From: an uncultured bacterium
GTDB lineage: Bacteria > Lernaellota > Lernaellaia > Lernaellales > Lernaellaceae
Assembly (NCBI GenBank): GCA_964511015.1
Contig: CAZEDX010000005.1
Span: 21,171 to 85,170, forward strand
Direction of reading: 5' to 3'
Length of the DNA stretch: 64,000 nucleotides
Below the pieces are notes generated by a model. It was not told the DNA's origin and ran no database searches. It saw only the letters and a program-made list of their open reading frames with translations. Shown piece by piece: positions 1-49,772 of the stretch (positions within the stretch are counted from its first letter, which is position 1; each line of letters begins with the position of its first letter). Position numbers and translations under genes: made by a program.

Positions 1-404
1 GTGTAGGCATGGCCATAGCCCTGGCGGATAAGCTCGGCGTTGAGCAGCGTACCATCGGGCAAGAACACATAGGCAAGAAGGCGTCCATATTTGTCTCGGT
101 GATTCGTCGCGGCGCTCGCCTGGTCGAGTTCGAGGCGCACAGTCTTGCCATCTGCCATCTTGTGAGTGAAGGCGCTCGCTTCTTTGCCGAAGTACTGGAC
201 GGGCTTCCTGGGATCGACCGTCTCCGGAGTGTCCACGCCGATGAGCCGAACCTTATCTCTCTGGCCGTCAATCTGAATCGCGAGCGTGTCGCCGTCGACT
301 GCGCGGGTGACTGTTGCGGTGAGAGAGTTGTTCGAATCCTCGGCCAAGCAAACCGAGGAGAAAAATACAAACGCCAGAAGAACAATCACGGAGGCCCGTT
401 TCAT
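1..404 (-). CDS. Secreted thermonuclease (staphylococcal-nuclease/SNase-like). Partial: the 3' end runs off the window start.
   Basis: Reverse-strand translation from the ATG at 404 gives MKRASVIVLLAFVFFSSVCLA (signal peptide), then ...TVTRAVDGDTLAIQIDGQRDKVRLIGVDTPET...DKYGRLLAYVFLPDG. These are SNase motifs (DGDT, RLxGIDTPE, DRYGRxLAYV). A GGAGG RBS sits 6 nt upstream. The gene is absent from the ORF track because no stop lies inside the window. Confidence 0.7.
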   Translation of the reverse strand, partial: MKRASVIVLLAFVFFSSVCLAEDSNNSLTATVTRAVDGDTLAIQIDGQRDKVRLIGVDTPETVDPRKPVQYFGKEASAFTHKMADGKTVRLELDQASAATNHRDKYGRLLAYVFLPDGTLLNAELIRQGYGHAY

Positions 405-562
405 CGAATACCTCCATTTTTCAGGGGCCGATCTTTTACCGACAGTTTGCCGACTACAGGGCGACTCGTCAAAGAGGATCGATTCCTCGGCGATACATAT
501 CCGAGAAAGAACCGATCAGCCGCCGAGGATTTTAGAGGACTCCATGCCGTATTTTCCGGCCC

Positions 563-1522
563 ATGAGAAAGCCCATGTACATCGAAACCCTGGAATACGG
601 ACCGGGGAAAGCCCTGAAAACATCGGACCCAGGGCTGACTCAAATTTTTCAGGAGGTCCGGACTATTTACGCACCCGCTGAATTCCCAGTCGTGATCCAG
701 GGCGAAACCGGCACCGGCAAAGAGGGCGTGGCGAGGGCCATTCATTGGCACAGTCCCCGCCGAGGCAAACCGTTCGTCGCGGTCAACTGCGGCGCGATCC
801 CAGAGGGTCTCGTCGATAGCGAATTCTTTGGGCACGAGCACGGTGCATTCTCGGGGGCTATCTCTCAGCGCAAAGGCCACTTCGAAGCTGCCAACGGCGG
901 CACGATCTTTCTGGACGAGATCGCAGAATTGCCGTTGGGTCTCCAGGCCCGGCTCCTGCGCGTGCTCCAGGAAGGAGAGATTGTCCGAGTGGGAAGCAGC
1001 AAACCAGTGCCCGTGGACATTCGAGTCGTTGCTGCAACGAACAAGGATCTCAAGGCGCTCGTCGACGATGGGAAATATCGCGTCGATCTCTACTACCGGA
1101 TCGCGGCCGCCGTGGTCCACATTCCTCCTCTCCGCGAACGACCGAGCGACATCATGATGTTGGCCAGAGCATTTATTGAAGAATGCTCACCGCCCAAGTG
1201 TCCTGGCCTTCGCATTCAACCGCTTGCCGCTCACTGCCTTCGCTCTCATACCTGGCCGGGCAATGTGCGTGAACTCCAGAGCGCCATAGTCGTCGCGTGC
1301 GCGCGGGCGGTCGCTGATAAACGATCTTCGATCGGTTTGGTTGATCTGGCTACAGAATTATCCGGCGCAAAAACAGTGAACCTGAAAAATAGTACTCTGA
1401 AACAGCGAGTGGCTGAATTCTTTGATAGAAATCCCGGCGGGTCGATCATGGAAGCCGCCCAGCACCTCGGGGTGAATTACCATGTTGCTCGCAGAGCCTT
1501 TCTGCGAACCATACAGCGGTAG
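563..1522 (+). CDS. Sigma-54-dependent transcriptional activator consisting only of the AAA+ sigma-54 interaction domain and a C-terminal Fis-type HTH (PspF-like). It has no receiver or sensory domain.
   Basis: Walker [16 protein letters not shown], a variant of the GAFTGA sigma-54 contact loop. GGTIFLDEI Walker [10 protein letters not shown] motif. C-terminal HTH ...[24 protein letters not shown]. Only ~50 aa precede the AAA+ core. Confidence 0.85.
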
Positions 1523-1532
1523 AGGTCGCGTG

Positions 1533-2429
1533 CTAGTTCGAAGTCGGAGGCTCAGCCTTGCTCGATTCATACTGAAAAGCTTTGAAATCGATTTCCGGCA
1601 AGCCAATCTCCGGCCCCTGACTTTTACGCAGTTCGACCCACGCCAAGCCGTTTTCGGTGGATCGATAGCAATTCCTTAAAGGTCCTGAAAACGCGCACTC
1701 TTTCAAAAATTTTCTCAGCACAAGCTCCATCAGATAATGAGAATTGAAATGGCGTCGATTAGAAAGCCCCACCACTCTCATCATGTCCTTGACGTTGGTT
1801 GGCTCTCGACACAGGTCAATGATCCGCGCGAGGTTGTCCCAGAGGGCCAACTGCGTTGCGCTCGGTGCTGTTCTGGTTTTCGGGTACATCTGGCTCGTGT
1901 CCTCACCCCACGAGGCCAACAGTTTTCTGGCTTCCAGGGCTAGTGGATCACGCTTGCGCACAGCAATTTGCCGAAGCACCTTTCGATCAGATTCGTCACC
2001 ACCGTGTTTTCGCATGTAGTCAAGAAGATTCTGACGGTTGGATTGATCTCCTATTCGGAGAAGACCCTCCCGCATATCAAGATCAACTACTATCTCGATG
2101 GGATCGAGGAGCGCCATCTGCTTTTTCGCCTTCGCCAGTTTTATTCGCTTGGTCGGTGTCCACCAAATTTTCTTGAACCAACATCCTCCTTGTTGATCCC
2201 ACTCATAGTTCCCATACTTCTCGTTCGTTCCATACTCACGACCGAAATCGCGAAAGAGATCTATCGCTGCGCCAAGTCGTTCCAAATCTCTGAGACCGAT
2301 GCAGCGAGTCATGAGCCAAAGATCGGTTAAAGACCCCTCAATGCCCGAATTACGTTCATGCAGTTCGATTGCGTCTTCGGTAACGGTAAGCGACAAAGTG
2401 ATTTTCATTTTCATGCGCATTTTCGACAT
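1533..2429 (-). CDS. Hypothetical protein of 298 aa with no recognisable catalytic motif. It lies between the sigma-54 activator and the exonuclease/GmrSD genes.
   Basis: Long ORF with coding-like composition. Tightly packed with the downstream exonuclease gene (3-nt gap). The C-terminal segment ...MMRVVGLSNRRHFNSHYLMELVLRKFL looks like a winged-helix-type region. Confidence 0.5.
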   Translation of the reverse strand: MSKMRMKMKITLSLTVTEDAIELHERNSGIEGSLTDLWLMTRCIGLRDLERLGAAIDLFRDFGREYGTNEKYGNYEWDQQGGCWFKKIWWTPTKRIKLAKAKKQMALLDPIEIVVDLDMREGLLRIGDQSNRQNLLDYMRKHGGDESDRKVLRQIAVRKRDPLALEARKLLASWGEDTSQMYPKTRTAPSATQLALWDNLARIIDLCREPTNVKDMMRVVGLSNRRHFNSHYLMELVLRKFLKECAFSGPLRNCYRSTENGLAWVELRKSQGPEIGLPEIDFKAFQYESSKAEPPTSN

Positions 2430-2432
2430 AAG

Positions 2433-3230
2433 TTAATCCCTTGTCGGGAATGCGCCATCAAGGGCGTTTTGAACTATCGTCTTCACCTCAAGTGAGAAAT
2501 TCGCTGACAACATCCACTGCAAATATCCCCTATCTTCCACTGCAAGGTGTCGCAGAGACGCATTGGAATTCTTTCCGAAGCTAAGGCATGCCTCTCCGTT
2601 GTCGTTCCAGAGTATCTTGCCATCCGAAGTCACGTTATTTGTATTCACATATCGGGCGACTTCGGCAAGAGTTTTCGGTAGCTCGCCATAACGGTTCAAT
2701 TGAGCAGCGAACACTCTCGCCGTGGCGTCCACATCGCTTGCCGCATCGTGGGCCTTTTCAAAATCCTCGTTGAGGTAAAATTTGACCGCTGCCTTCAAAT
2801 CGCGTTTCTCGAAGTGGAAAAAGATCTCCATGACGTCAACGACTTCCCTATCGGCAAGGGAAAAATTCTTGTCGCACCGTTTGAATTCCTCCATCAGCAA
2901 GGGAATGTCGAATTTCTTAACGTTGAAGCCGCCAAGATGTGCGCCGCCGATTAACTGCAAAATGTCCGATGCAACCATCGAGAAGATTGGCTTGTCTGCT
3001 ACATCAGCGTCGGTGATTCCATGAACGGCTGAGGCGTCAGGCGGGATCGGCTGATCGGGGTTGATTAGCAGATTCAGCCACTCCTCTGGATGGTCCAAGG
3101 ATATCTTTTTCGCCGCAAATTGAACGATCCGATCAGTGGCGAAGTTCGTCCCCGTGGTTTCAAGGTCGAAGATGACAAGTGGTTTGTCCTGCAGAAGATC
3201 GCGTAACGTCATATCTCCCTCAGCACGCAA
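2433..3230 (-). CDS. DEDDh-family 3'-5' exonuclease (DnaQ/epsilon-like) with a C-terminal extension of unknown function.
   Basis: Exo I motif VIFDLETTG. Exo II region HGITDADV. Exo III AHDAASD (H-x4-D). About 90 extra C-terminal residues. Confidence 0.8.
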   Translation of the reverse strand: MRAEGDMTLRDLLQDKPLVIFDLETTGTNFATDRIVQFAAKKISLDHPEEWLNLLINPDQPIPPDASAVHGITDADVADKPIFSMVASDILQLIGGAHLGGFNVKKFDIPLLMEEFKRCDKNFSLADREVVDVMEIFFHFEKRDLKAAVKFYLNEDFEKAHDAASDVDATARVFAAQLNRYGELPKTLAEVARYVNTNNVTSDGKILWNDNGEACLSFGKNSNASLRHLAVEDRGYLQWMLSANFSLEVKTIVQNALDGAFPTRD

Positions 3231-3268
3231 AGCGAGCGGGCCTTCTGGTTGGCCAGCTGGTATGCCGA

Positions 3269-4999
3269 TTAAAATCCATCGGCGCTGAAGCCCAGCGCGC
3301 TCTCCACTTCGGAAATGAGACGCGCTTCTCTGATTTTCAGAAATTCCCGAAACTGCCCATAGTCCAGCATTTCGCGGTCAATGAACGCCCTTTGCAAATC
3401 TTCGTCGTTCACATCGGCAAAAAATTCTTTTGGGTCCTTGGCCGATTTGTTCTGATTCTTGCCTTTGGCGAGCAACCAGAAATTTGCGAAATGATTTAGC
3501 TCGTGTTCCTCGAACTTCATGTCTCTCAGTTTCGACCGTGGGAAAATGTGATCCATTTCTAGCGCGCTTGAAGGCAGGTGGACCTTTGCGCCAGTGAATC
3601 CTTGGACCAGGCAATGGGTCAAATAGACATTGTTCTGCAAGAGACCGGGGCTCACGCGATCACACTGGAACCATGTCTTCGTCATCCATTTGACGAAAGC
3701 GCCAATTGGAAAGGAGAAGTCACCTTTGCTGATTCGCGGATACATCTCCCAAGATACGATTTTCCCAATGCGGCTATCGGCAAAACGTTGGAAGGCGCGG
3801 GTGAATCCGCACAGATAGAGAGCCTGCCGAAAAGGCTTCAAGTCCGCGTTCGGAACCTGGTGCTTGGGTAAATTGTGGAGGTAATAGACGAAAGGAACAA
3901 AGGTGTTGTTTCCGGCAAAGGCTTTGCTGCTGCTGCACCAGCAGTCTCTTTGCACGACGTCGACAAGCGAGCGGATGGCGTTGCAGCATTGGGCGAAGTT
4001 TTTCTTGAATTTCTCGATATTCACCTTATTGCGGAGAAGATCAATGTTGAGCTTCGACCCCAAACCGGAAACGGTGAAAAGGCAGCGGATCACAAAGTCA
4101 GCGTCGAACTGAAATGCATTCCCCTCGTTGATGCTATCCACGAATTCCGGGAGGGTTTCCGCTGACTCCTTCCAATCCAGTTTGAGCATCGAAAAAATCA
4201 GGTCGGATCGACTCAGCGGAGTACCTTGGCGATTGATCCTCACGAAGACTTCGAGCACGTCAGCTTCTGATTTTCGGTCGGGGCTACCAAGTGGTTTGTT
4301 CTCGTCGATGACCGAGGTTTTCAGAATGCTTTCTTCCTTGCTCATCACCTCGTCGATTCGTGCGAGATTCATGTCGAGACGGAGACTATCGTCGTCGGTG
4401 AGTTGGAGCTTCGTGGTCAAATCGCGACTCAATTTCTTTTTTTCCGAAACGGACATTCGAAAAAGGTCTTGAAACCGCATGTACCATTCCATCTGGTCGC
4501 CGTTGTTGTCGTCGGTTTTTCTTTCACTGAATGTCTTAAAGGTTTCCTCGTTGTGCTGGACATCTTCGTCGGGAGTGGAGAAGCGAAAATAGTAGACCAT
4601 CTCCCGGAGATCATTTGACTCTCGACCGGACAGCACGTCGAACGAGAGGTACTTGCCTTCATTGGAGCCGTAAAGCGCAAGGTACAAGGACTGAAGGCGC
4701 TGCTGGCCATCAAGAACCACGTTCAACCGGCGCTTACTGACGTTGTCTTTGAACGTCTGCCGATTGATCTCGCGGACGTCCTTGACGAATTCTCTGTAGC
4801 GAAGGTCGTCGTAGGTCTCCCACATCAGCACGATTCCAAGGGGATAGCCGCGCATGATCGAGTCGAGAAGCATGAAGATTTTGTCTTCGGGCCAGACGAA
4901 ATCGCGCTGGATCGCCGGGAGAACAACGTCCCCGCGATCCATCTGATTAAGCAACGTGCTGATGCTCATTGAGCCTCCTAGCGGCGACCTGAAACGCAA
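3269..4999 (-). CDS. GmrSD-family type IV (modification-dependent) restriction endonuclease-like protein, DUF262 + DUF1524.
   Basis: N-terminal DUF262/ParB-like motifs LPAIQRDFVW and LDGQQRL (DGQQR hallmark). C-terminal His-Me finger-like region ...EMDHIFPRSKLRD...HELNHFANFWLLAKGKNQNKSAKDP (DUF1524). 576 aa. An alternative start at MSISTLL is 4969. Confidence 0.8.
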   Translation of the reverse strand: MRFRSPLGGSMSISTLLNQMDRGDVVLPAIQRDFVWPEDKIFMLLDSIMRGYPLGIVLMWETYDDLRYREFVKDVREINRQTFKDNVSKRRLNVVLDGQQRLQSLYLALYGSNEGKYLSFDVLSGRESNDLREMVYYFRFSTPDEDVQHNEETFKTFSERKTDDNNGDQMEWYMRFQDLFRMSVSEKKKLSRDLTTKLQLTDDDSLRLDMNLARIDEVMSKEESILKTSVIDENKPLGSPDRKSEADVLEVFVRINRQGTPLSRSDLIFSMLKLDWKESAETLPEFVDSINEGNAFQFDADFVIRCLFTVSGLGSKLNIDLLRNKVNIEKFKKNFAQCCNAIRSLVDVVQRDCWCSSSKAFAGNNTFVPFVYYLHNLPKHQVPNADLKPFRQALYLCGFTRAFQRFADSRIGKIVSWEMYPRISKGDFSFPIGAFVKWMTKTWFQCDRVSPGLLQNNVYLTHCLVQGFTGAKVHLPSSALEMDHIFPRSKLRDMKFEEHELNHFANFWLLAKGKNQNKSAKDPKEFFADVNDEDLQRAFIDREMLDYGQFREFLKIREARLISEVESALGFSADGF

Positions 5000-5055
5000 C
5001 TCTGGAGTATTTAGAACCAGGGAAGTTCAGCACCAAAACGTACCTGAGTCAACGC

Positions 5056-5095
5056 AGGACCGCAATCTGATTTCGCGGTCCTCCTGGTTTTTATT
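5056..5095. terminator. Stem-loop AGGACCGC-N-GCGGTCCT followed by a T run on the + strand. Candidate (possibly bidirectional) terminator between comM and the GmrSD gene.
   Basis: Inverted repeat aggaccgcaatctgatttcgcggtcct followed by cctggttttt. Lies in the 196-nt gap between the comM stop and the GmrSD start. Confidence 0.4.
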
Positions 5096-5195
5096 GGCCT
5101 CGACGAACAGCGAAATCGGCTTGTGCGCATGGTGATTCAAATCCCCAAAGCTCGATCTGTAATTTACTGCCACGGATAAACACGCCGATTTGAAC

Positions 5196-6389
5196 TCACA
5201 CATGGCCGATTTCGCTTTCGGGTTGATGGCGCCTACACGGACAACGCGGAAGGAAGCGAGAGTATCCTTTATAAAACGCGACGTTGCGTTCGGATGCTTT
5301 TTGCGTGCGTTCCTGGTGCTGTTGGAGTGTGCGGCAGGGATTCATCGCGGCAATCAGAATAAACCGCGCGGGAAAGGTCGCGGTCATTGACGCCCGGCTG
5401 ATGGTTACTGTGCCGTCTTCCAAAGGTTGGCGCATCATTTCGAGTACGTCACGCCGAAACTCGGGCAGTTCGTCGAGAAACAGCACACCGTGATGCGCTA
5501 GACTGATCTGGCCCGGGCGCGGCACGATACCGCCGCCAACCAGGCCGGCATCGCTCGCCCCATGATGTGGCGCGCAGAACGGGCGCTCCGTGATCAGCCC
5601 GCGGCCGTTCAACTTGCCCGCCACGCTGTAGATCTTGCTGGTGTCGATGATCTCGCGCGTGTTCATCGGCGGCAGCAATGTCGACATGCGGCGCGCAAGC
5701 ATCGTCTTGCCGGAGCCGGGCGGACCGATCAACAGCAAGTTGTGCCCTCCCGCCGCCGCCACTTCCAACGCGCGTTTCGCCTGCTCCTGCCCGCACACAT
5801 CGGCCAGGTCGACGTCTTCCTGATGCGACGATCGGCCGCAGAGAGGTGTCGGCGGCGCGACATCGACCGCCCGCTCGCCCCGCAACCAGGCCACTATTTC
5901 GGTTAGGTGGCTGAACCCGCGCACCTCCACCCCGTCGGCGGTCGCGGCCTCGGCAACGTTATCGTGGGCCACCAATAGCCCTTCTACACTCTGTTGCTTC
6001 ATGTGATCCGCCACCACCATCGCACCGGGTACCGGCTTGATGGAACCATCGAGGCCGAGCTCCCCCAGGACCGCGTGAGAGCGCGTACGCAAGCGCGGAA
6101 TTAGCCCGTAGGCCTGCATCAGCCCGATGGCGATCGGCAGGTCGAGCGCCGCCCCTTCCTTGCGGCGATCGGCCGGAGCCAAGTTGATAACGGTGCGATT
6201 GCGCAGACACGAAAAACCGCTGGCCGAGAGCGCCGACAAAACACGCTCCTGGCTCTCGCGTACTGCCCCGGCCGGCAAGCCGACAATCCGCAGCGAAGGC
6301 AACCCACGTCCGGCGTAGACTTCGACATGCACGGTGAAGGCTTCTACCCCGACCGTCGCTCCGGAAACCACTTGGCCCAAACCGGACAT
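5196..6389 (-). pseudogene. comM: comM/yifB Mg-chelatase-like AAA+ ATPase, 3'-truncated. The ORF ends about 30 aa after the conserved AAMNPC motif, so roughly 140-160 C-terminal residues are missing.
   Basis: Start [24 protein letters not shown]... with an AGGAGG RBS 5 nt upstream of the ATG at 6389. Walker [14 protein letters not shown]. ...[13 protein letters not shown] is then followed by unrelated sequence (RTLQQHQ...[17 protein letters not shown]). Full-length ComM continues long past NPCPCG. Confidence 0.7.
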
Positions 6390-6570
6390 CGCATCCTCCT
6401 GCCCGTTCCCACGAGCAATGGACATGCCAACGGCGGACGAAAAAATGAATTCCCTTATGAATCAAGCAGTTGACCGAAAACGGCGTTGCGAAGCAGGCGA
6501 TGATGTGTTCGGAAATCGAACAGTCGTGTTCGGATTCCGAACAGTCAGAACGAACACCAAGTGTTCTTGC

Positions 6571-7743
6571 TCACTCCCGCAACCATTCCGGAGAGAAGAC
6601 AGCGAAGTCGATGCGCAGATAGGGCAGGAACGGTAACAGACCTCTCTCATACAAGCAGCCTAGCTGCCCGTCGGGCAAGACCGCCAGCGCGGAATACGCC
6701 GAACCGCCCGGGTTCAACACACGTGAAACCGGCCAGGTTTTGCCGTTGTCGGCACTGAGATAGACGGTCAAGTTGCGCCGGAGCAGTTCGCTTTCCGACG
6801 CCAGCCCTGAATACAACAGGCCGTAAGACGTGTTCAGCAGGCTGCCCATGCACGAAGGATCAAGCAATTCGTCGTCATGCGCCACGCCGGTCCAGGTTAG
6901 ACCCCGGTCCTCGCTGCGCCCCACCCAGCGCCGATGCACCGCCGACAGATCACGCGCGTTAATGACGAGACTGCCGTCGTCCAGTTCCGCCACCTGCGAT
7001 TCGTCGGAATCCGGCACCAGACTTCCTCCGATCTGCCAGGTCTCCCCGTCGTCGCTATAGATCACATGCGAGTAAGCTTCGCCGTTGGTCGCGTCGCGGT
7101 GATCGCACGGGACGATGAAACGGCCATCGGCCAACTGGATGCTGCGCCCGGGACCCGTAGCGTACCATGTCCATTCTTCTGGCTTCACCTGGGTGGTGAT
7201 GTCTAGCGGCTCGGACCAACTCGCCCCTTCGTCGCTGCTGCGGGTGATAAGTACCCGCCGGTTGGTCGGGTCGTCGGCGGGGTTGGTGCAAAAGGGCAAC
7301 AGGATGTCGCCGGTTGCGCGGTCGACGACTGGCGCCGGATTGCCGGCGGTGTCGAAACCGTTGTCGACAATGACACGCAAGGCCGACCAGGTGCGCCCGC
7401 CGTCCACACTGCGTTTCATGACCAGATCAATGTCGCCGGTATCGGCAATGCTCGGACGCCCTTCGCAAAAGGCGAGCAATGCGCCAGTGGCGGTTTCGAT
7501 AACGGCAGGAATCCGGTAGACGTCGTATCCTCCCTGCCCGCCGACAAAGACCGGGTACTCGGCGAACTCGATGGCGCCGTCATCGGTGGCGTCATCGTCG
7601 ATATCGTTGTTGGCGTCATCGTCGTCGCCGGGCGCGTTGGTGTTGTCGTCGGCTATGTTGTCGTCATCACCGGAATTTTCACATGAGATTGCCGTCAGAA
7701 CAGCCAGGAGCAATACAAGGCCTGGCAGCAGATTGCTTTTCAT
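6571..7743 (-). CDS. Exo-alpha-sialidase (GH33, BNR/Asp-box repeats) lipoprotein with an N-terminal Asp-rich tether.
   Basis: Lipobox LTAISC. D-rich linker SGDDDNIADDNTNAPGDDDDANNDIDDDATDDG. RIP motif YRIPAV. Five Asp-box SxDxGxTW repeats (SVDGGRTW, SDEGASW, SDDGETW, SEDRGLTW, SADNGKTW). Confidence 0.75.
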   Translation of the reverse strand: MKSNLLPGLVLLLAVLTAISCENSGDDDNIADDNTNAPGDDDDANNDIDDDATDDGAIEFAEYPVFVGGQGGYDVYRIPAVIETATGALLAFCEGRPSIADTGDIDLVMKRSVDGGRTWSALRVIVDNGFDTAGNPAPVVDRATGDILLPFCTNPADDPTNRRVLITRSSDEGASWSEPLDITTQVKPEEWTWYATGPGRSIQLADGRFIVPCDHRDATNGEAYSHVIYSDDGETWQIGGSLVPDSDESQVAELDDGSLVINARDLSAVHRRWVGRSEDRGLTWTGVAHDDELLDPSCMGSLLNTSYGLLYSGLASESELLRRNLTVYLSADNGKTWPVSRVLNPGGSAYSALAVLPDGQLGCLYERGLLPFLPYLRIDFAVFSPEWLRE

Positions 7744-7969
7744 CCGAGCCCCCTTCTATTTCCAGATTGTTGGGATTGGAGAGACAAGTCAAGTTATGCG
7801 ATTTTGATCGGCTTTCCGGTCACGGCGTTCAACCAATGGGCCATCGGCCGTGTCTGAACGCTGACGTACGCAACGCCGGTCAGGGTGGTGTGCGGTTTGG
7901 ACTCCATTCCAAACCTTGCACGGCTCCGGTGGACATGCTAGAAGGCTGCGAAACGGAAACGGAGCGCCG

Positions 7970-8890
7970 ATGCGCAAATTGATTGCTTGGCTTAGGGGTT
8001 TGAACTGGAAGCTGACCCTTGGCTATTGCGCCCTGTTTTTCGTGCTGTTCTTCGTTTTCTTGTACCTGACCTTTCCCTACAACTCGGTTCGCGACGCCAT
8101 CGTGCGTCAAGTTGAAAGCCTGCAAGGCGCGGAAGGCACTTCCGCGATGCGCATGCGCGTGGAAGTGGCCGATGTTTCTCCGTTCCGGTTGACCGGCGTG
8201 CGCCTGCAGGGCGTCAAACTCTCCCGGCCCGAGGATCCACGACAGGTATTGCTCAATCTGAACGAAGTGCGAATTCGCCTGCGGCCGACCCAACTTTTAC
8301 GCGGCCGGCTGTGGCTCGATTTCGACGTCTACGCCTACGACGGCGGCGCCGCGGGCTCCTACTGCAAACGCGGCCCAGTGACTGATCTGGCGTTGAACTT
8401 TGTAGGGCTGCGCCTAGCAAAATACGGCACGCGCGAACTGGTGCAGAAGTTCGGCTCGATGTCGTTGGACGGCACGTTATCCGGCCAGTTCGAGCTCCAC
8501 TTCAACCCGGCGATGCGCCGCAACAACAGTGGTGGGCTGACGTTGAACATCGACAAATTGAAGGCCACCGGCATCACCATGGTCGGCAACAAGCTGCCCG
8601 ACATGACTTTCGAACCGGGCAAGATCGTGTTGAAGATGCAGAACCAGAACTTCCAGGTCGACGAATTCAAACTGAAGAGTGACCAACTGGAAGTGGATCT
8701 GACCGGCCGCATCACGCTGGCCGATCAGATGAAGAACAGCCGCCTGTTCCTGAACTTCAGGTTCAAGCCTTCCGACGAACTTGAAACCGCCTTAGGCATG
8801 TTGATGATGACGATGAAAGAGCCGGATGACGAGGGCTTCTATTCGCTATCCATCAACGGCACGCCGGGGAATCTCCGCACCCGTCACTGA
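7970..8890 (+). CDS. Membrane-anchored periplasmic protein, possibly T2SS GspN-like. Start taken at MRKLIAW.
   Basis: N-terminal TM helix WKLTLGYCALFFVLFFVFLYL followed by a beta-rich domain. The family assignment is tentative. Confidence 0.4.
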   Translation: MRKLIAWLRGLNWKLTLGYCALFFVLFFVFLYLTFPYNSVRDAIVRQVESLQGAEGTSAMRMRVEVADVSPFRLTGVRLQGVKLSRPEDPRQVLLNLNEVRIRLRPTQLLRGRLWLDFDVYAYDGGAAGSYCKRGPVTDLALNFVGLRLAKYGTRELVQKFGSMSLDGTLSGQFELHFNPAMRRNNSGGLTLNIDKLKATGITMVGNKLPDMTFEPGKIVLKMQNQNFQVDEFKLKSDQLEVDLTGRITLADQMKNSRLFLNFRFKPSDELETALGMLMMTMKEPDDEGFYSLSINGTPGNLRTRH

Positions 8891-9390
8891 TCGTGATCTG
8901 CAGACTGCTTTTTTCTGGGTACCGTCCGGCGAGTGTCGTGGTTGAAATACCGCCGCTCCACGATGGATACAATGATCAACGCTGTAACCATGACCGTGGT
9001 GACGGCGAAGCCGAGTAACGGGTAACCGGCACCGACTAGCGCCCCGATCGCCGCCATCGTCCAAATCGTGGCAGCGGTGGTCAGCCCGCGGACCGCCATT
9101 CCCTGTTGGATGATGACGCCGGCGCCTAGGAAACCGACGCCAGTCACCACCTGCGCCGCAATGCGGGTTGGATCGACGTCTTGTCCGCTACCGCTGGCCA
9201 TCATTTCGCCGACCATGACATACAACGCCGCGCCCAAACTGATCAGCATCATCGTGCGCAAACCGGCCTCGCGATGATGGATCTCCCGCTCAAGGCCGCA
9301 GGCGATTCCGCACAGCATGGCCACGGCCAGCCGCATCCAGATGGTAACATCAAGCAACCGCGCCAAGTCGAAACCGGTTGATGCGCTCAT
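8884..9390 (-). CDS. mgtC: MgtC/SapB family membrane protein.
   Basis: MgtC signature LCGIACGLEREI and multiple TM segments. Start chosen at MSASTGF. Confidence 0.7.
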   Translation of the reverse strand: MSASTGFDLARLLDVTIWMRLAVAMLCGIACGLEREIHHREAGLRTMMLISLGAALYVMVGEMMASGSGQDVDPTRIAAQVVTGVGFLGAGVIIQQGMAVRGLTTAATIWTMAAIGALVGAGYPLLGFAVTTVMVTALIIVSIVERRYFNHDTRRTVPRKKQSADHDQ

Positions 9391-9404
9391 CCAGAATCCC
9401 CTGT

Positions 9405-10922
9405 TCAGCATCCACACGCGTCGGCATCGTCGGCGGCGGACGCTTGGTTGCTGTCATCATCCACGTCGTCGTCTAGGTCGTCGTCCTGATCGTCGTCGGC
9501 ATCATCGTCGGACAGATCGTCATCGGCGATGTCGTCGTCGGCATGGTCGTCGTCCGCAACGTCGTCATCCGCGCTGTCATCATCGACAATGTCGTGCGGT
9601 TCCAGAAAATCATAGTAGCGCCCCATCCAGTAGGCGATCAGGTAGTCGACTCCGGGCTGCACGTGCTGAGGCAGCCAGCCGTAACATTGCAAATGGTGGG
9701 GTGTGCGTTGCCACAGGTATTCCACGCGACACCGGTCGGTGATTTCCTGCGCTCCCTCGGCCTGGTATGCGAAACCGAGCAAATCGTTGAGACCCAACGA
9801 CTCGGCCAAGTCGGTCAGAAACACCGATACCGGATCGACCGGCAGTTGCGGACAGTTAATGTGAATCTCGCGGTTGGGCGGATCCTGGAAGACGGTGAGC
9901 GAGTGAAGATCGTCTTCCATGATCTCCTTCGCCCCGGCGCACTGACCCATTTTTTCACAGGCGATCAGATAGACGTAGTCGAAATAGACGTTGTGGGTCC
10001 ATTCGACCAGCCGGCGCTGTTTGCTGAACAGATCCCAATAGACCGCCAAACGTTCCGGATCGTCATCCAGCCGGAACAGGTTCAGATCGATCTGGTGCCG
10101 CAGGTTGTTGGCGAAGTACTCGGTATACCGGTTGAAAAAGGCAATGCTCGTCAACGGCAGCGTGGGCGCCAGTTTTTCGAACTGTTCGGCATACAGATCC
10201 CAATACTCTGCCGTGTCCAGAATGTGCGCCGCGATCAGGCAGAAAACGAGGCGTTTCTGGCCGTCGATCATCGGCGCCGCCGTGGTCGGCAAGCCTTCCT
10301 CGTTGAGAATCAGCCAGGCGCTGTTGCGCAGCTTGTCGATGACCTCTTTCACCATCTCGCGAATCAGGGCCCGGGTCGGGGCGTCGTCGATGAAATCGTA
10401 GGCCAGCGCGAGGCCGTGCCACCAACCCACATATTGGTCGGACGAACTGTTGGACAGATAGAAAGTGCCCAGCCACGGGCCGGTGCCGTATTCGAGCAGG
10501 TCGCTGCCGGCGTACTCCAACCAGTAGGCCGGATCGTTGACCGGGCCGACGTAACGCCCGATGTACCCGGTGGTTTGCGTCACTCGCAGGTGATCGCGCA
10601 AGGTCTCCACCGCGGCGATTGCGTTCTGCTTGGCGTCTTCGTCGCCCGTCACCGCGTAGCGGAATGATTCGGCCGCGCAGTAGGTGGCCGTCCACATCGT
10701 GGAATCGCCCTGGCCGCGGTAGTACAGCACCTTCTCCAGGTCCTCCGTTTCGAACATGATCTGGACAATGCCGCCATAGCCCGGCACGTGGTGGTCGCGG
10801 AGCCAGGTTTCGTAGTCGATGGCACGTTGAAGCAGGGCCGGGTCTTCGTCTGCCGAAACGGGCGCCGCAAACGCGATCGCCACCGCGCCCAAAAGGAATA
10901 GGACGAGCGTTCTTTTTCTCAT
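9405..10922 (-). CDS. Secreted alpha-helical protein of unknown function carrying a C-terminal poly-Asp repeat tail that ends ...DDADACGC-COOH.
   Basis: Signal peptide MRKRTLVLFLLGAVAIAFAAPVSA. C-terminal ~60 aa read DDDSADDDVADDDHADDDIADDDLSDDDADDDQDDDLDDDVDDD...ACGC, then stop. Confidence 0.6.
   Translation of the reverse strand: MRKRTLVLFLLGAVAIAFAAPVSADEDPALLQRAIDYETWLRDHHVPGYGGIVQIMFETEDLEKVLYYRGQGDSTMWTATYCAAESFRYAVTGDEDAKQNAIAAVETLRDHLRVTQTTGYIGRYVGPVNDPAYWLEYAGSDLLEYGTGPWLGTFYLSNSSSDQYVGWWHGLALAYDFIDDAPTRALIREMVKEVIDKLRNSAWLILNEEGLPTTAAPMIDGQKRLVFCLIAAHILDTAEYWDLYAEQFEKLAPTLPLTSIAFFNRYTEYFANNLRHQIDLNLFRLDDDPERLAVYWDLFSKQRRLVEWTHNVYFDYVYLIACEKMGQCAGAKEIMEDDLHSLTVFQDPPNREIHINCPQLPVDPVSVFLTDLAESLGLNDLLGFAYQAEGAQEITDRCRVEYLWQRTPHHLQCYGWLPQHVQPGVDYLIAYWMGRYYDFLEPHDIVDDDSADDDVADDDHADDDIADDDLSDDDADDDQDDDLDDDVDDDSNQASAADDADACGC
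9408..9580 (-). repeat. Tandem 12-nt repeats, (GAC)3-NNN type, encoding DDDx.
   Basis: Protein tail DDDxADDDx... read directly. Coding for the C-terminus of the 9405..10922 gene. Confidence 0.7.
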
Positions 10923-14645: not shown

Positions 14646-15221
14646 CTACCAGTTCTCCGCCAGCAGTTCAAAGAAGGCCTGTGGATGCGCGCAGAGCGGG
14701 CAAGCCGCCGGAGCGTCGAGGCCTTCGTGCAAGTAGCCGCAATTCAGGCACCGCCAAACAACCGACTGGTCTTTCTGGAAAACCTTGTTTGCTTCGACGT
14801 TGGCCAGCAGGCCGCGGTAACGTTTCTCGTGCTGCCGTTCGGCCACGCAGACCAGTTCAAACAGCTTCGCGATCGGCTCAAACCCTTCCTGGCGCGCGAT
14901 CTTCGCGGCGGCCGGGTACAGGACGGTCCATTCCAGCTTTTCGCCTTCGGCCGCGGCTTTCAGGTTGAGGCCCGTTGTCGCAATCACACCGGCCGGGTAA
15001 GCCGCGGTGATCTCGAGTTCGCCTCCTTCCAGATAGGAAAAGAAGCGCTTGGCGTGCTCTTTCTCCTGATTGGCTGTCTCGTCAAAAATGGCCGCGATCT
15101 GCTCGTAGCCTTCCTTGCGCGCCTTGCCGGCGAAATAGGTATAACGATTGCGCGCCTGGGATTCGCCCGCAAATGACGCCAACAAGTTTTTCTCTGTCTG
15201 GGTTCCTTTTACGCTCGCCAT
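14646..15221 (-). CDS. rbr: Rubrerythrin (diiron domain + C-terminal rubredoxin-like domain).
   Basis: MASVKGTQTEKNLLASFAGESQARNRYTYFA...EKEHAKRF... and C-terminal WRCLNCGY...CPLCAHPQ. Confidence 0.9.
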   Translation of the reverse strand: MASVKGTQTEKNLLASFAGESQARNRYTYFAGKARKEGYEQIAAIFDETANQEKEHAKRFFSYLEGGELEITAAYPAGVIATTGLNLKAAAEGEKLEWTVLYPAAAKIARQEGFEPIAKLFELVCVAERQHEKRYRGLLANVEANKVFQKDQSVVWRCLNCGYLHEGLDAPAACPLCAHPQAFFELLAENW

Positions 15222-15267
15222 ATTCTGCCTCCTCTTTCGACGTTAATTGACTGCTGCACGCCGTGGA

Positions 15268-15735
15268 CTACGCCTTCGTGGCCGGCGCCTGCCTCGCTTT
15301 TGACTGCTGTTCTTTGAGTTGTTCCCTTACGCACACCGGGCATATGCCGAAGAACTCGAGATGATGCCCCAACACCCGATAGCCGCCTGAATGCTCAATA
15401 TGGTATTCCACCTCGCCACCCGGTTCAATTGCTATGTCGTCAACCCGGCCGCATTGTACACAGCGAATGTGCAAGTGCTCGTGCACGGTATCATCAAACC
15501 GCATCTGCGAGCCGCTAAAGTCTATCTTGCGCAACAGCCCCTGCTCGGCCAGCAGCTCGAGGTTACGGTACACTGTGGCCAAGCTAACGTGAGGTAACTT
15601 CTGCCGGACCGCGGCATAGACCTCGTCTACCGTCGGGTGTGAGTGCATATCCTGCACAACCGCCAAAATCACCTCGCGTTGTTTGGTATTGCGGCTCATG
15701 GTTGTTTGTTCCGGGGTACTCATTATGACAACCAT
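15268..15735 (-). CDS. Fur-family metalloregulator (PerR/Fur-like).
   Basis: ...REVILAVVQDMHSHPTVDEVYAAVRQKLPHVSLATVYRNLELLAEQGLL... HEHLHIRCVQCGRV...CPVC metal sites. Confidence 0.85.
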   Translation of the reverse strand: MVVIMSTPEQTTMSRNTKQREVILAVVQDMHSHPTVDEVYAAVRQKLPHVSLATVYRNLELLAEQGLLRKIDFSGSQMRFDDTVHEHLHIRCVQCGRVDDIAIEPGGEVEYHIEHSGGYRVLGHHLEFFGICPVCVREQLKEQQSKARQAPATKA

Positions 15736-15739
15736 TGTT

Positions 15740-15758
15740 GATAATGATAATCATTACT
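15740..15758. promoter_or_regulatory. Fur box, a near-perfect match to the GATAATGATAATCATTATC consensus, immediately upstream of the Fur-family gene.
   Basis: Sequence gataatgataatcattact at 15740-15758. 18 of 19 positions match the consensus. Confidence 0.65.
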
Positions 15759-15898
15759 GATACGATGATAGTCATGTTTGAAATCGACGTCAAGAGGAAA
15801 TTTGCCATTGGTTCGGCCGTGGACAAGCTAAGAAGGACAAAGAACGATTGCCAGCCGATCGATCGGACGTACCCAGGACAATCTGGTCCTCCTGTAGT

Positions 15899-45690: not shown

Positions 45691-45828
45691 AGGGACTGTC
45701 TCCTGTCAAAAGGATTGCGTCGCCGACCCCTTCAGTTTGACGCCGGGAACACGCGGCAGGTTTCCCCACCCAGAGCCGCGCCGTCTTTCACACCACCCAC
45801 TCTACCACTACGGCCCGCCTTTAGGTGA

Positions 45829-45844
45829 GCAAGTGGTGTGCCAA
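45829..45844 (-). promoter_or_regulatory. Sigma-54 (-24/-12) promoter for the fliL operon.
   Basis: Minus-strand sequence TGGCACaccacTTGCt, i.e. + strand gcaagtggtgtgcca at 45829-45843. Exact TGGCAC-N5-TTGC spacing, ~140 nt upstream of the fliL ATG. Confidence 0.65.
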
Positions 45845-49505: not shown

Positions 49506-49772
49506 TGGTCGATCCTTCCCCCGCACGCCGTTAGGCAAAGCCGAATAACCCGGATACTAGCCATCCGACGCACGGATCAAGCAAACGATGTGCCACCGTT
49601 CGAGCAAGCGAACGAAGCCTTTGATTTAACAAGGCTTGCTTGCATTGTACGACCTCGCGCCGGAATGAAGCAACGGGACAGAATTGCTTTGGTGTCAAAA
49701 AATCGACGGAACGATTCTGCCGTTCTTGCGGCGTAGCCGAAACCTCTGTTAGGTTGGCAAGAACTACTTGGA

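Follow-up and report, generated by a model that had tools for sequence, protein, structure and literature searches.

Why does the comM (yifB) gene of an uncultured bacterium of the phylum Candidatus Lernaellota leave its family sequence after 352 codons, and what is the DNA that follows it? The gene lies near the left edge of a 64,000-nucleotide stretch of contig CAZEDX010000005.1 (GenBank assembly GCA_964511015.1, positions 21,171 to 85,170, forward strand), hereafter called the window. comM is split here by an integrated mobile element, and positions 1-5332 are most likely the arm next to attL of a temperate tailed phage, or of a recent derivative of such a phage, that was integrated into comM by a large serine recombinase (LSR). 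A preliminary description of the sequence had already proposed an island insertion at comM, and this is supported by intact relatives, a recurrent breakpoint, 3' fragments of the gene that begin at the same core and an element end that matches its relatives in register. The example given at that time, the AbaR-type islands of Acinetobacter, has the wrong mechanism, since the relatives show a large-serine-recombinase prophage.

The break in comM

The open reading frame (ORF) at 5196..6389 on the minus strand is 100% identical to the 397-residue protein P0001; the start of the mechanically called ORF reaches 6425. It is a composite of host and element DNA, with the following parts:

5334..6389, minus strand: 5' fragment of comM/yifB (comM'), codons 1-352, covering ChlI and the AAA+ core as far as sensor-1 (...AAMNPC), Walker A and Walker B included
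5333..5336, minus strand: attL core TGCC, the presumed crossover region and the only sequence common to 5' and 3' junctions
5196..5332, minus strand: chimeric tail of the comM' ORF, 45 element-encoded codons and a stop
about 5273-5332, minus strand: conserved element end, the P' arm of attP (first ~45-60 nt past the core), from the alignment to the related contig L002

As the preliminary description had stated, the ORF follows its family and then diverges. The fragment matches the Pfam domains ChlI (PF13541, 1.5e-35) and Mg_chelatase (PF01078, 4.4e-78) and the NCBIfam YifB profile TIGR00368 at positions 2-370 of 499 (2e-122, above the cut-off), and in a tblastn comparison residues 1-351 of the intact relative P0002 (507 aa) align to 6389..5334, with nothing beyond. 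Past ...AAMNPC, which ends at base 5334, come 45 unrelated codons and a stop, rather than the 30 residues counted at first. The missing C-terminal part, put at about 150 aa originally, amounts to about 155 residues, and tblastn with P0002 recovered its coding sequence in no frame across the 64 kb, and the in-frame C-terminal region that the preliminary description had named as evidence against an insertion is thus missing; Mg_chelatase_C (PF13335) was likewise absent from the fragment in the Pfam scan, and neither the arginine-finger segment (..SGPLLDRID..) nor the Mg_chelatase_C lid of complete ComM/YifB proteins was found in the window. The window comM is a gene fragment, not a functional member of the family. 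Base composition changes at the same place: G+C is 0.504 in 1523-5195, versus 0.645 in the comM fragment and 0.583 elsewhere in the window. Nor is the junction an oddity of a single assembly: a separate one, the 3.4-kb Logan contig L001 (SRR12489243), reproduces it with 100% identity from a BNR gene through comM' and the junction to the start of the adjoining GmrSD-type nuclease gene.

Is a short ComM simply the ancestral state? The nearest relatives, P0002 (84.7%) and P0003, are intact proteins of 506-507 aa with 82-85% identity to the window ComM, and P0005, P0009, P0012 (from Candidatus Lernaella stagnicola, phylum Candidatus Lernaellota) and P0015 are intact as well. On the other hand, the genes of P0004, P0006, P0007, P0008 and P0010 (~360 aa) are cut at the nucleotide where the window gene breaks off, and the proteins stop right behind the NPC codon with short tails that are related (LTxGQxQGFAQ). 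A matrix of pairwise identities shows cut and intact genes intermingled, which takes three or more independent events, or excisions, to explain, and the short ComM, which the preliminary description had named as a state that would speak against an insertion, is not ancestral. The comparison with an empty site that it had also proposed gave the expected picture: in the intact locus L006, comM is uninterrupted and has the MgtC and AsmA-like genes upstream as in the window, but its downstream neighbors, HRDC and ferredoxin-type (Fer4) genes, differ. (Between comM and the AsmA-like gene, the window has a BNR/sialidase-like gene with an Asp-rich N-terminal region, 6571-7743 on the minus strand, which is absent upstream in L006, the locus of the closest relative.)

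The other half of the gene was sought with a profile of the missing C-terminal domain. A matching comM 3' fragment, P0123 (141 aa, 82-85% identical to P0002), lies on a separate contig of 1.2 kb, L008, from a sister sample of L001. There, G+C is 0.49 before the junction and 0.625 after it, and the low-G+C DNA ends ...CTCGGA TGCC. The cluster membership listing gave no accession linking P0001 and P0123. A further 3' fragment, P0122, is found on L009.

We compared ten junctions, five of them attL (window, L002, L004, L097 and L100) and five attR (L008, L009, L010, L013 and L015). With a slash marking the boundary, the 5' junctions read ..ATGAAYCCN TGCC / KCAC..., and the 3' junctions ...GGA TGCC / CYTGCGG in L008 and L009, likewise in L010 and L013, and with TGTC in L015; the intact attB of L006 is ..AATCCG TGCC CGTGCGG. 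In most of the ten, TGCC alone is common to attL and attR, and the comM frame is not restored. Both junctions share a 4-bp core but no long direct repeats, which had been named earlier as something to look for, and neither a 5-bp target duplication nor terminal inverted repeats were present at the junctions compared. The reconstructed attP reads ...CTCGGATGCCGCACACTCC... and the attB ...AATCCCTGCCCTTGCGG..., and the corresponding synthetic junction sequences are GCGATGAATCCCTGCCCTTGCGGTTACCTGGG for attB and TTTCTCGGATGCCGCACACTCCAACAGC for attP. For the contig holding P0123, the 3' junction would read ...CTCGGATGCC / CTTGCGG. The element end itself is conserved: after the core, 22/41 nt are identical in register to the end of L002 and L100, a value reached by 3 of 19,718 control placements.

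How might such a junction arise? An LSR would pair the phage attP with an attB whose center, TGCC, falls within the Cys-Pro codons of the invariant NPCPCG motif, and strand exchange, presumably inside the TGCC core, would leave no target duplication and no long repeats. The split would fall between the AAA+ sensor-1, which we take to be AAMNP, and the arginine-finger/lid region, the finger presumably being carried by ..SGPLLDRID.. (both by analogy with the MCM/Mg-chelatase AAA+ clade). Since arginine finger, sensor-2 and lid are all removed, ComM should be inactive for as long as the phage is integrated, and excision would rebuild comM.

The same position has been used by other elements. Dozens of comM 3' fragments (160-190 aa, among P0127-P0233) from lineages that include Geobacter/Desulfuromonadales-like ones start precisely at xCPCG, behind a small set of recurring leaders that derive from the elements, such as MRTSAVLSGYSRERLTHP. 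The same nucleotide is therefore used by several element families across phyla. What adjoins the junction varies. In the Geobacter pelophilus copy (L010, 9543-10531) it is oxidative-stress genes. L009 carries, upstream of the comM 3' junction (1-9717), a large block of defense-like genes: an MmeI/Eco57I-type methyltransferase, a 1803-aa DEAD/MZB helicase, a Cap4-type nuclease and an AAA_23 ATPase, and the attR end of comM-inserted elements therefore also gathers defense genes. Two IMG/VR sequences end at the comM site, too: L013, with a prim-pol/D5 helicase (1760-3979) directly at the junction, and L015 (1711-2256 and 6736-9599), a prophage of 39 kb that encodes a small tyrosine recombinase and, by the junction, a nucleotidyltransferase/HEPN pair.

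The related prophage family

Positions 1-5332 hold no second end and no recombinase, and both must lie to the left of position 1. What they may look like is indicated by relatives that share the element end. Past its cut comM, L002 has two unknown genes, a regulator, a staphylococcal-nuclease-like protein (SNase), an Lcl_C protein, a Hel308-like helicase and a LexA/CI-like repressor. Contigs L097-L101, retrieved in a metagenome scan with the L002 helicase, extend this picture: L097, L098, L099 and L100 all have the order LSR, (cargo), LexA-like repressor, helicase, SNase, regulator, cargo, attL and comM', and L002 and L102 keep this order as far as the fetched sequence reaches. The SNase, regulator, cargo and attL of the window follow the order and orientation of the family, at a similar distance from attL. 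By extension, the integrase side of attL in the window copy would run from the integrase through a CI/LexA-like repressor and a Hel308-like helicase to the SNase and the PspF-like activator, the last two being those in the window.

Beyond the repressor, L100 encodes a 700-aa LSR with the domains Resolvase, Recombinase and Zn_ribbon_recom. The LSR of the family matches phrog_95 ("integrase", 6.5e-134), has the catalytic YSRVST motif, and finds its best relative among solved structures in the SPbeta integrase (2.5e-31). It is present in L097, L098, L100, L102-L105 and L107, with 67-100% identity to the L100 query (90% in L098 and 67% in L102/L103), and the L002 contig carries one as well (P0241), outside the fetched locus. 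By homology, the integrase of the window copy would be of this kind. Two LSR homologues, P0245 and P0244, were considered as the window's own integrase and rejected, both being from other samples. The LSR also has an extra C-terminal XRE-type helix-turn-helix (HTH; residues ~550-610), in L100 (6707-8809), L098 (5153-7255), L102 (482-2551) and the more distant L113 (10001-12142). Such a domain is not known from the classical phage serine integrases; it may serve as a repressor or contact the repeats described below.

The remainder of the element is that of a temperate tailed phage. The leftward early operon of L100 encodes a PD-(D/E)XK exonuclease, a Sak4-like AAA_24 protein, DUF669/SSB, an ERCC4 nuclease and a RecD2-like helicase. 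In IMG/VR, the same phage is a 28-kb provirus from a metagenome shared with L002, and its sequence goes on to an AEP primase, a late activator, the small and large terminase subunits (TerS and TerL) and the portal protein. The L002 and L100 prophages are 95-99% identical (LSR 98%, helicase 99%), whereas their hosts have ComM proteins that are 74.9% identical and differ in the upstream neighborhood, which implies recent arrivals of the phage in different hosts at one and the same nucleotide.

Cargo, backbone and possible sigma-54 control

What does the arm carry in the window? From the left edge toward attL, its genes are:

1..404, minus strand: secreted SNase-like protein, phage backbone; the N-terminal 134 aa with a signal peptide, continuing off the left edge
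563..1522, plus strand: PspF-type sigma-54 activator, phage backbone; GAFSGA loop in the AAA+ domain, HTH at the C-terminus, no sensor domain
1533..2429, minus strand: 298-aa protein, cargo gene 3, 3 nt downstream of the exonuclease
2433..3230, minus strand: DEDDh (DnaQ/RNase T-like) 3'-5' exonuclease, cargo gene 2, 38 nt past the GmrSD gene
3269..4969, minus strand: GmrSD-type nuclease, cargo gene 1, with DUF262 and a putative DUF1524/His-Me domain; candidate type IV restriction enzyme

These are the genes that the preliminary description had listed downstream of comM, and they are as it gave them. Its "defense islet" holds for the GmrSD gene, the exonuclease and the 298-aa gene, which occupy the cargo slot, but not for the regulator and the SNase, which belong to the conserved backbone. 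The window 1-8000 gave no match to any Rfam family.

In the GmrSD gene, ATG 4969 is preceded by AGGAGG (the mechanical ORF begins at TTG 4999). Its product clearly matches GmrSD_N (4.6e-28) and, below the curated cut-off of 23 bits, GmrSD_C (0.0034, 17.7 bits); it also matches PADLOC HEC-05 from end to end (2.7e-68) and phrog_17051, and its translation shows the DGQQR and DHIFP...N motifs. The predicted DUF262 and DUF1524 architecture would be that of the GmrSD type IV enzymes, here paired with a DEDDh exonuclease and the 298-aa gene. The exonuclease matches Pfam RNase_T (7.3e-23), PADLOC DEDDh (4.2e-29) and PDC-S48 (5.2e-24), phrog_192 (1.5e-45) and NCBIfam DnaQ-family models. The 298-aa protein had no match in Pfam, PADLOC, NCBIfam, PHROGs or the PDB sequences, and it is not homologous to the gene in the equivalent position of L098. 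With gaps of only 38 nt and 3 nt, the three genes probably form one operon, and this is probably an anti-phage operon expressed in the lysogen; the combination was not assigned to any named system by PADLOC.

The slot by attL is variable. In place of these three genes, L002 and L100 have unknown genes of 360 and 639 aa, and L098 has an ECF-sigma-like gene, a phosphoesterase, a helicase-like gene and others. A variable slot fixed beside the att site (window versus L002, L098 and L102) is also a trait of P2/P4-type hotspots, although the phage lineage is a different one. Another variable slot separates the LSR from the LexA-like repressor, and it is filled by a KAP-family NTPase in L098 (7270-9096) and by RRM and HTH genes in L102 (2651-5162).

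The backbone genes tie the window to the family. The SNase matches the NCBIfam thermonuclease model (4.2e-31) and is 70.1% identical to the SNase of L002. The regulator matches Sigma54_activat (PF00158, 7.8e-65) from residue 21, AAA_lid_14, PADLOC RtcR_PspF2 (9.7e-98, without the CARF part) and phrog_7998. Against TIGR02974 (pspF) it scores 3e-73, which is under the equivalog cut-off, and it is PspF-like in architecture, not in orthology. Its counterpart in L002 (14753..15718, minus strand) is 67% identical, in the equivalent position and orientation. (In the annotation of L002, a 248-aa ORF at 15134-15880 on the plus strand has been called on the wrong strand over this activator gene; the corresponding shadow ORF of the window is 401-1120, minus strand.) Exact-protein look-ups of the regulator and of the GmrSD protein gave no match, which, for the regulator, may be explained by this wrong-strand annotation.

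Sigma-54-type sites occur both in the window and in the related elements. One lies beside the split gene:

6414..6429, minus strand: sigma-54-type promoter TGGCATGTCCATTGCT, located 25 nt ahead of the comM start codon, a perfect match to TGGCAYN5TTGCW

It is conserved in position in L006 and in L004/L100, and in L002 with a variant -12 element, and comM appears to be sigma-54-dependent in this lineage, as far as sequence conservation can tell. The predicted promoter points through comM' toward the co-oriented cargo genes, and no terminator-like site was found on the minus strand between comM' and the GmrSD gene. The window has two further perfect matches to TGGCAYN5TTGCW, at 45828-45843 and 49580-49595 (both minus strand), all three with zero mismatches. 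In positions 1-5332, no sigma-54 promoter or enhancer-type repeat was found.

In the sister elements, the control region between the early operon and the LSR (L100 6250-6720; L098 4690-5160; L102 1-480) holds two divergent sigma-54-type promoters, those of L100 occupying 6273-6288 and 6621-6636. They read TGGCACGCTCCTCGCA rightward and TGGCATCCCTCTTGCC leftward. One of the two heads the integrase operon and the other the early recombination/replication operon, and the pair is conserved in L098 and in L102/L103. The promoters flank 5-6 direct repeats of TGCAAAACGGAAWGG, spaced exactly 21 bp apart, which look like enhancer sites. In L113 (9340-10010), two divergent perfect sigma-54 promoters accompany different repeats (TAATCCAGCAGAAATT), with a third promoter past the LSR gene and an activator gene of its own. 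Our literature search found no description of phage-encoded sigma-54 activators that control phage promoters. The predicted sites suggest that the PspF-like protein of the window acts on promoters of the phage itself. It is quite possible, though somewhat less likely than not, that its gene is the master activator of a temperate-phage lineage whose switch is run by host sigma-54, in which case cargo expression and competence might both be tied to sigma-54 and to excision.

Competing explanations and what the split means

How secure is the phage interpretation? Several points weigh against it. Neither the recombinase nor the phage body of the window copy was recovered: look-ups with window proteins gave no longer contig, and a scan of genome collections with the regulator returned only generic sigma-54 activators of <=55% identity. 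The closest LSR homologues come from other samples, and this copy could be a decayed remnant. The evidence that L008 derives from the genome of the window is circumstantial. The reconstructed attP shows only a weak dyad about its core (12/22), which is not significant once corrected for multiple testing, and the LSR gene of the family is situated ~10 kb from attL and not beside it, which is less typical of LSR phages. L113, with an LSR that is 43% identical and the same layout, had no comM fragment in the 10 kb fetched beyond the integrase on the attL side, and target choice may therefore be clade-specific. Finally, the defensive function of the cargo is predicted from family assignment only.

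Could a different history account for the same junction? One would be that the window copy is a defective remnant of an old LSR-phage insertion, deprived of integrase and structural genes and by now a fixed defense island next to a permanently dead comM. Nothing to the left of position 1 was retrieved, and an identity of 67-70% to L002 in the regulator and SNase, with host ComM at 71.5%, would fit a long co-residence. However, every gene in view is an intact ORF, core and P' arm have been retained, and the sister elements are complete enough for provirus calls and demonstrably mobile; moreover, the nearest relatives, at 82-85% ComM identity, are uninterrupted, so the insertion must be younger than that split. 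We regard an old remnant as unlikely. A far smaller chance still is given to the absence of any insertion, that is, a naturally short ComM, a frameshift or an assembly chimera. Several relatives do encode proteins of ~360 aa, but these all stop just past the same junction with element-derived tails, two assemblies agree on that junction, where G+C drops sharply, no frame holds a C-terminal coding sequence, and intact orthologues exist; such an origin is hardly credible.

The remaining alternatives accept an element but ascribe it to another enzyme. In Acinetobacter baumannii, comM is a known attachment site of Tn7-like AbaR islands, and further elements, with CBASS or Zorya, interrupt it too (PMC11472951). 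A Tn7-like transposon of the AbaR/Tn6022 type, directed by a TniQ/TnsD selector and with its cargo near one end and the transposition genes near the other, would fit the visible 5.3 kb, and the AbaR/AbGRI elements resemble this one in the target gene and domain that they interrupt, in the loss of ComM and in the defense cargo on comM-disrupting elements. The mechanisms differ: theirs is TniQ-directed DDE transposition with a 5-bp duplication, while serine-recombinase integration is proposed here. No TnsA/B/C or TniQ domain was found in the ORFs of the window or in those scanned in ~31 kb of related elements, the junctions share 4 bp instead of a 5-bp duplication, the ends are KCAC.../...GGA and not TGT...ACA, inverted terminal repeats were not seen, and in the relatives whose end sequence is the same an LSR and phage genes are present, all of which makes a Tn7-like origin very improbable. 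Might a tyrosine recombinase or some other enzyme have built the island, the regulator/SNase module being merely exchangeable cargo? Unrelated elements do occupy the site (L013 and L015, above), and some comM islands of the TIGER supplements are missing from the serine-integrase tree file (PMC7192596). Yet it is the element end itself, and not just the cargo, that matches the LSR-phage family in register, and the order, orientation and distance from attL of the module are those of the same family. A short core and an unrestored target gene, as here with 4 bp, are typical of serine rather than tyrosine integrases, and we give very little credence to such an enzyme.

Insertion of a temperate phage or recent derivative by an LSR also has precedents. 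TIGER (Mageeney et al. 2020) placed yifB among 19 new "regulated gene integrity" candidates, with multiple independent inactivations by integrative elements, and its supplements include several islands or prophages in which the Mg_chelatase domain of comM is disrupted; some of these are in the serine-integrase tree (Aac2.24, Bca1.12 and Cno1.37) and some break near profile positions 156-169 (PMC7192596). Judged by profile position, those breaks are close to that of the window. The elements differ in host (here, metagenome-only relatives of Candidatus Lernaellota), and the cargo, the sigma-54 circuitry and the ~10-kb arm from integrase to attL are specific to the present family. Elements that disrupt yifB/comM, some with serine integrases, and defense cargo at this site are thus already published; what is described here extends them to a poorly sampled phylum. 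LSR prophages that split genes include Bacillus SPbeta in spsM, the skin element in sigK and Listeria A118/phi10403S in comK. Like these, the comM element is most likely derived from a temperate phage, would use an LSR and lies inside a coding sequence that it does not restore; in those cases excision can rebuild the gene, and the target of A118, comK, is a competence gene, as is comM. The phylum, the target gene and the att sequences are different, however, this LSR has the extra C-terminal XRE HTH, and no sign of regulated excision was seen here.

What, then, does the split mean for the bacterium? Loss of ComM lowers the recombination of heterologous transforming DNA, which has been proposed to shield mobile elements from being cured by transformation (PMC11472951). 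For annotation, the ComM of this genome is a pseudogene, most likely made by a prophage, and positions 1-5332 are most likely horizontally acquired phage DNA, which bears on metabolic and competence inference and on contamination checks. The family further provides a serine integrase whose natural attB is highly conserved and, possibly, a sigma-54-dependent form of phage regulation. More generally, the nucleotides coding for NPCPCG are the precise integration point of many unrelated elements in several phyla, which supports the notion that disabling ComM is of benefit to them.

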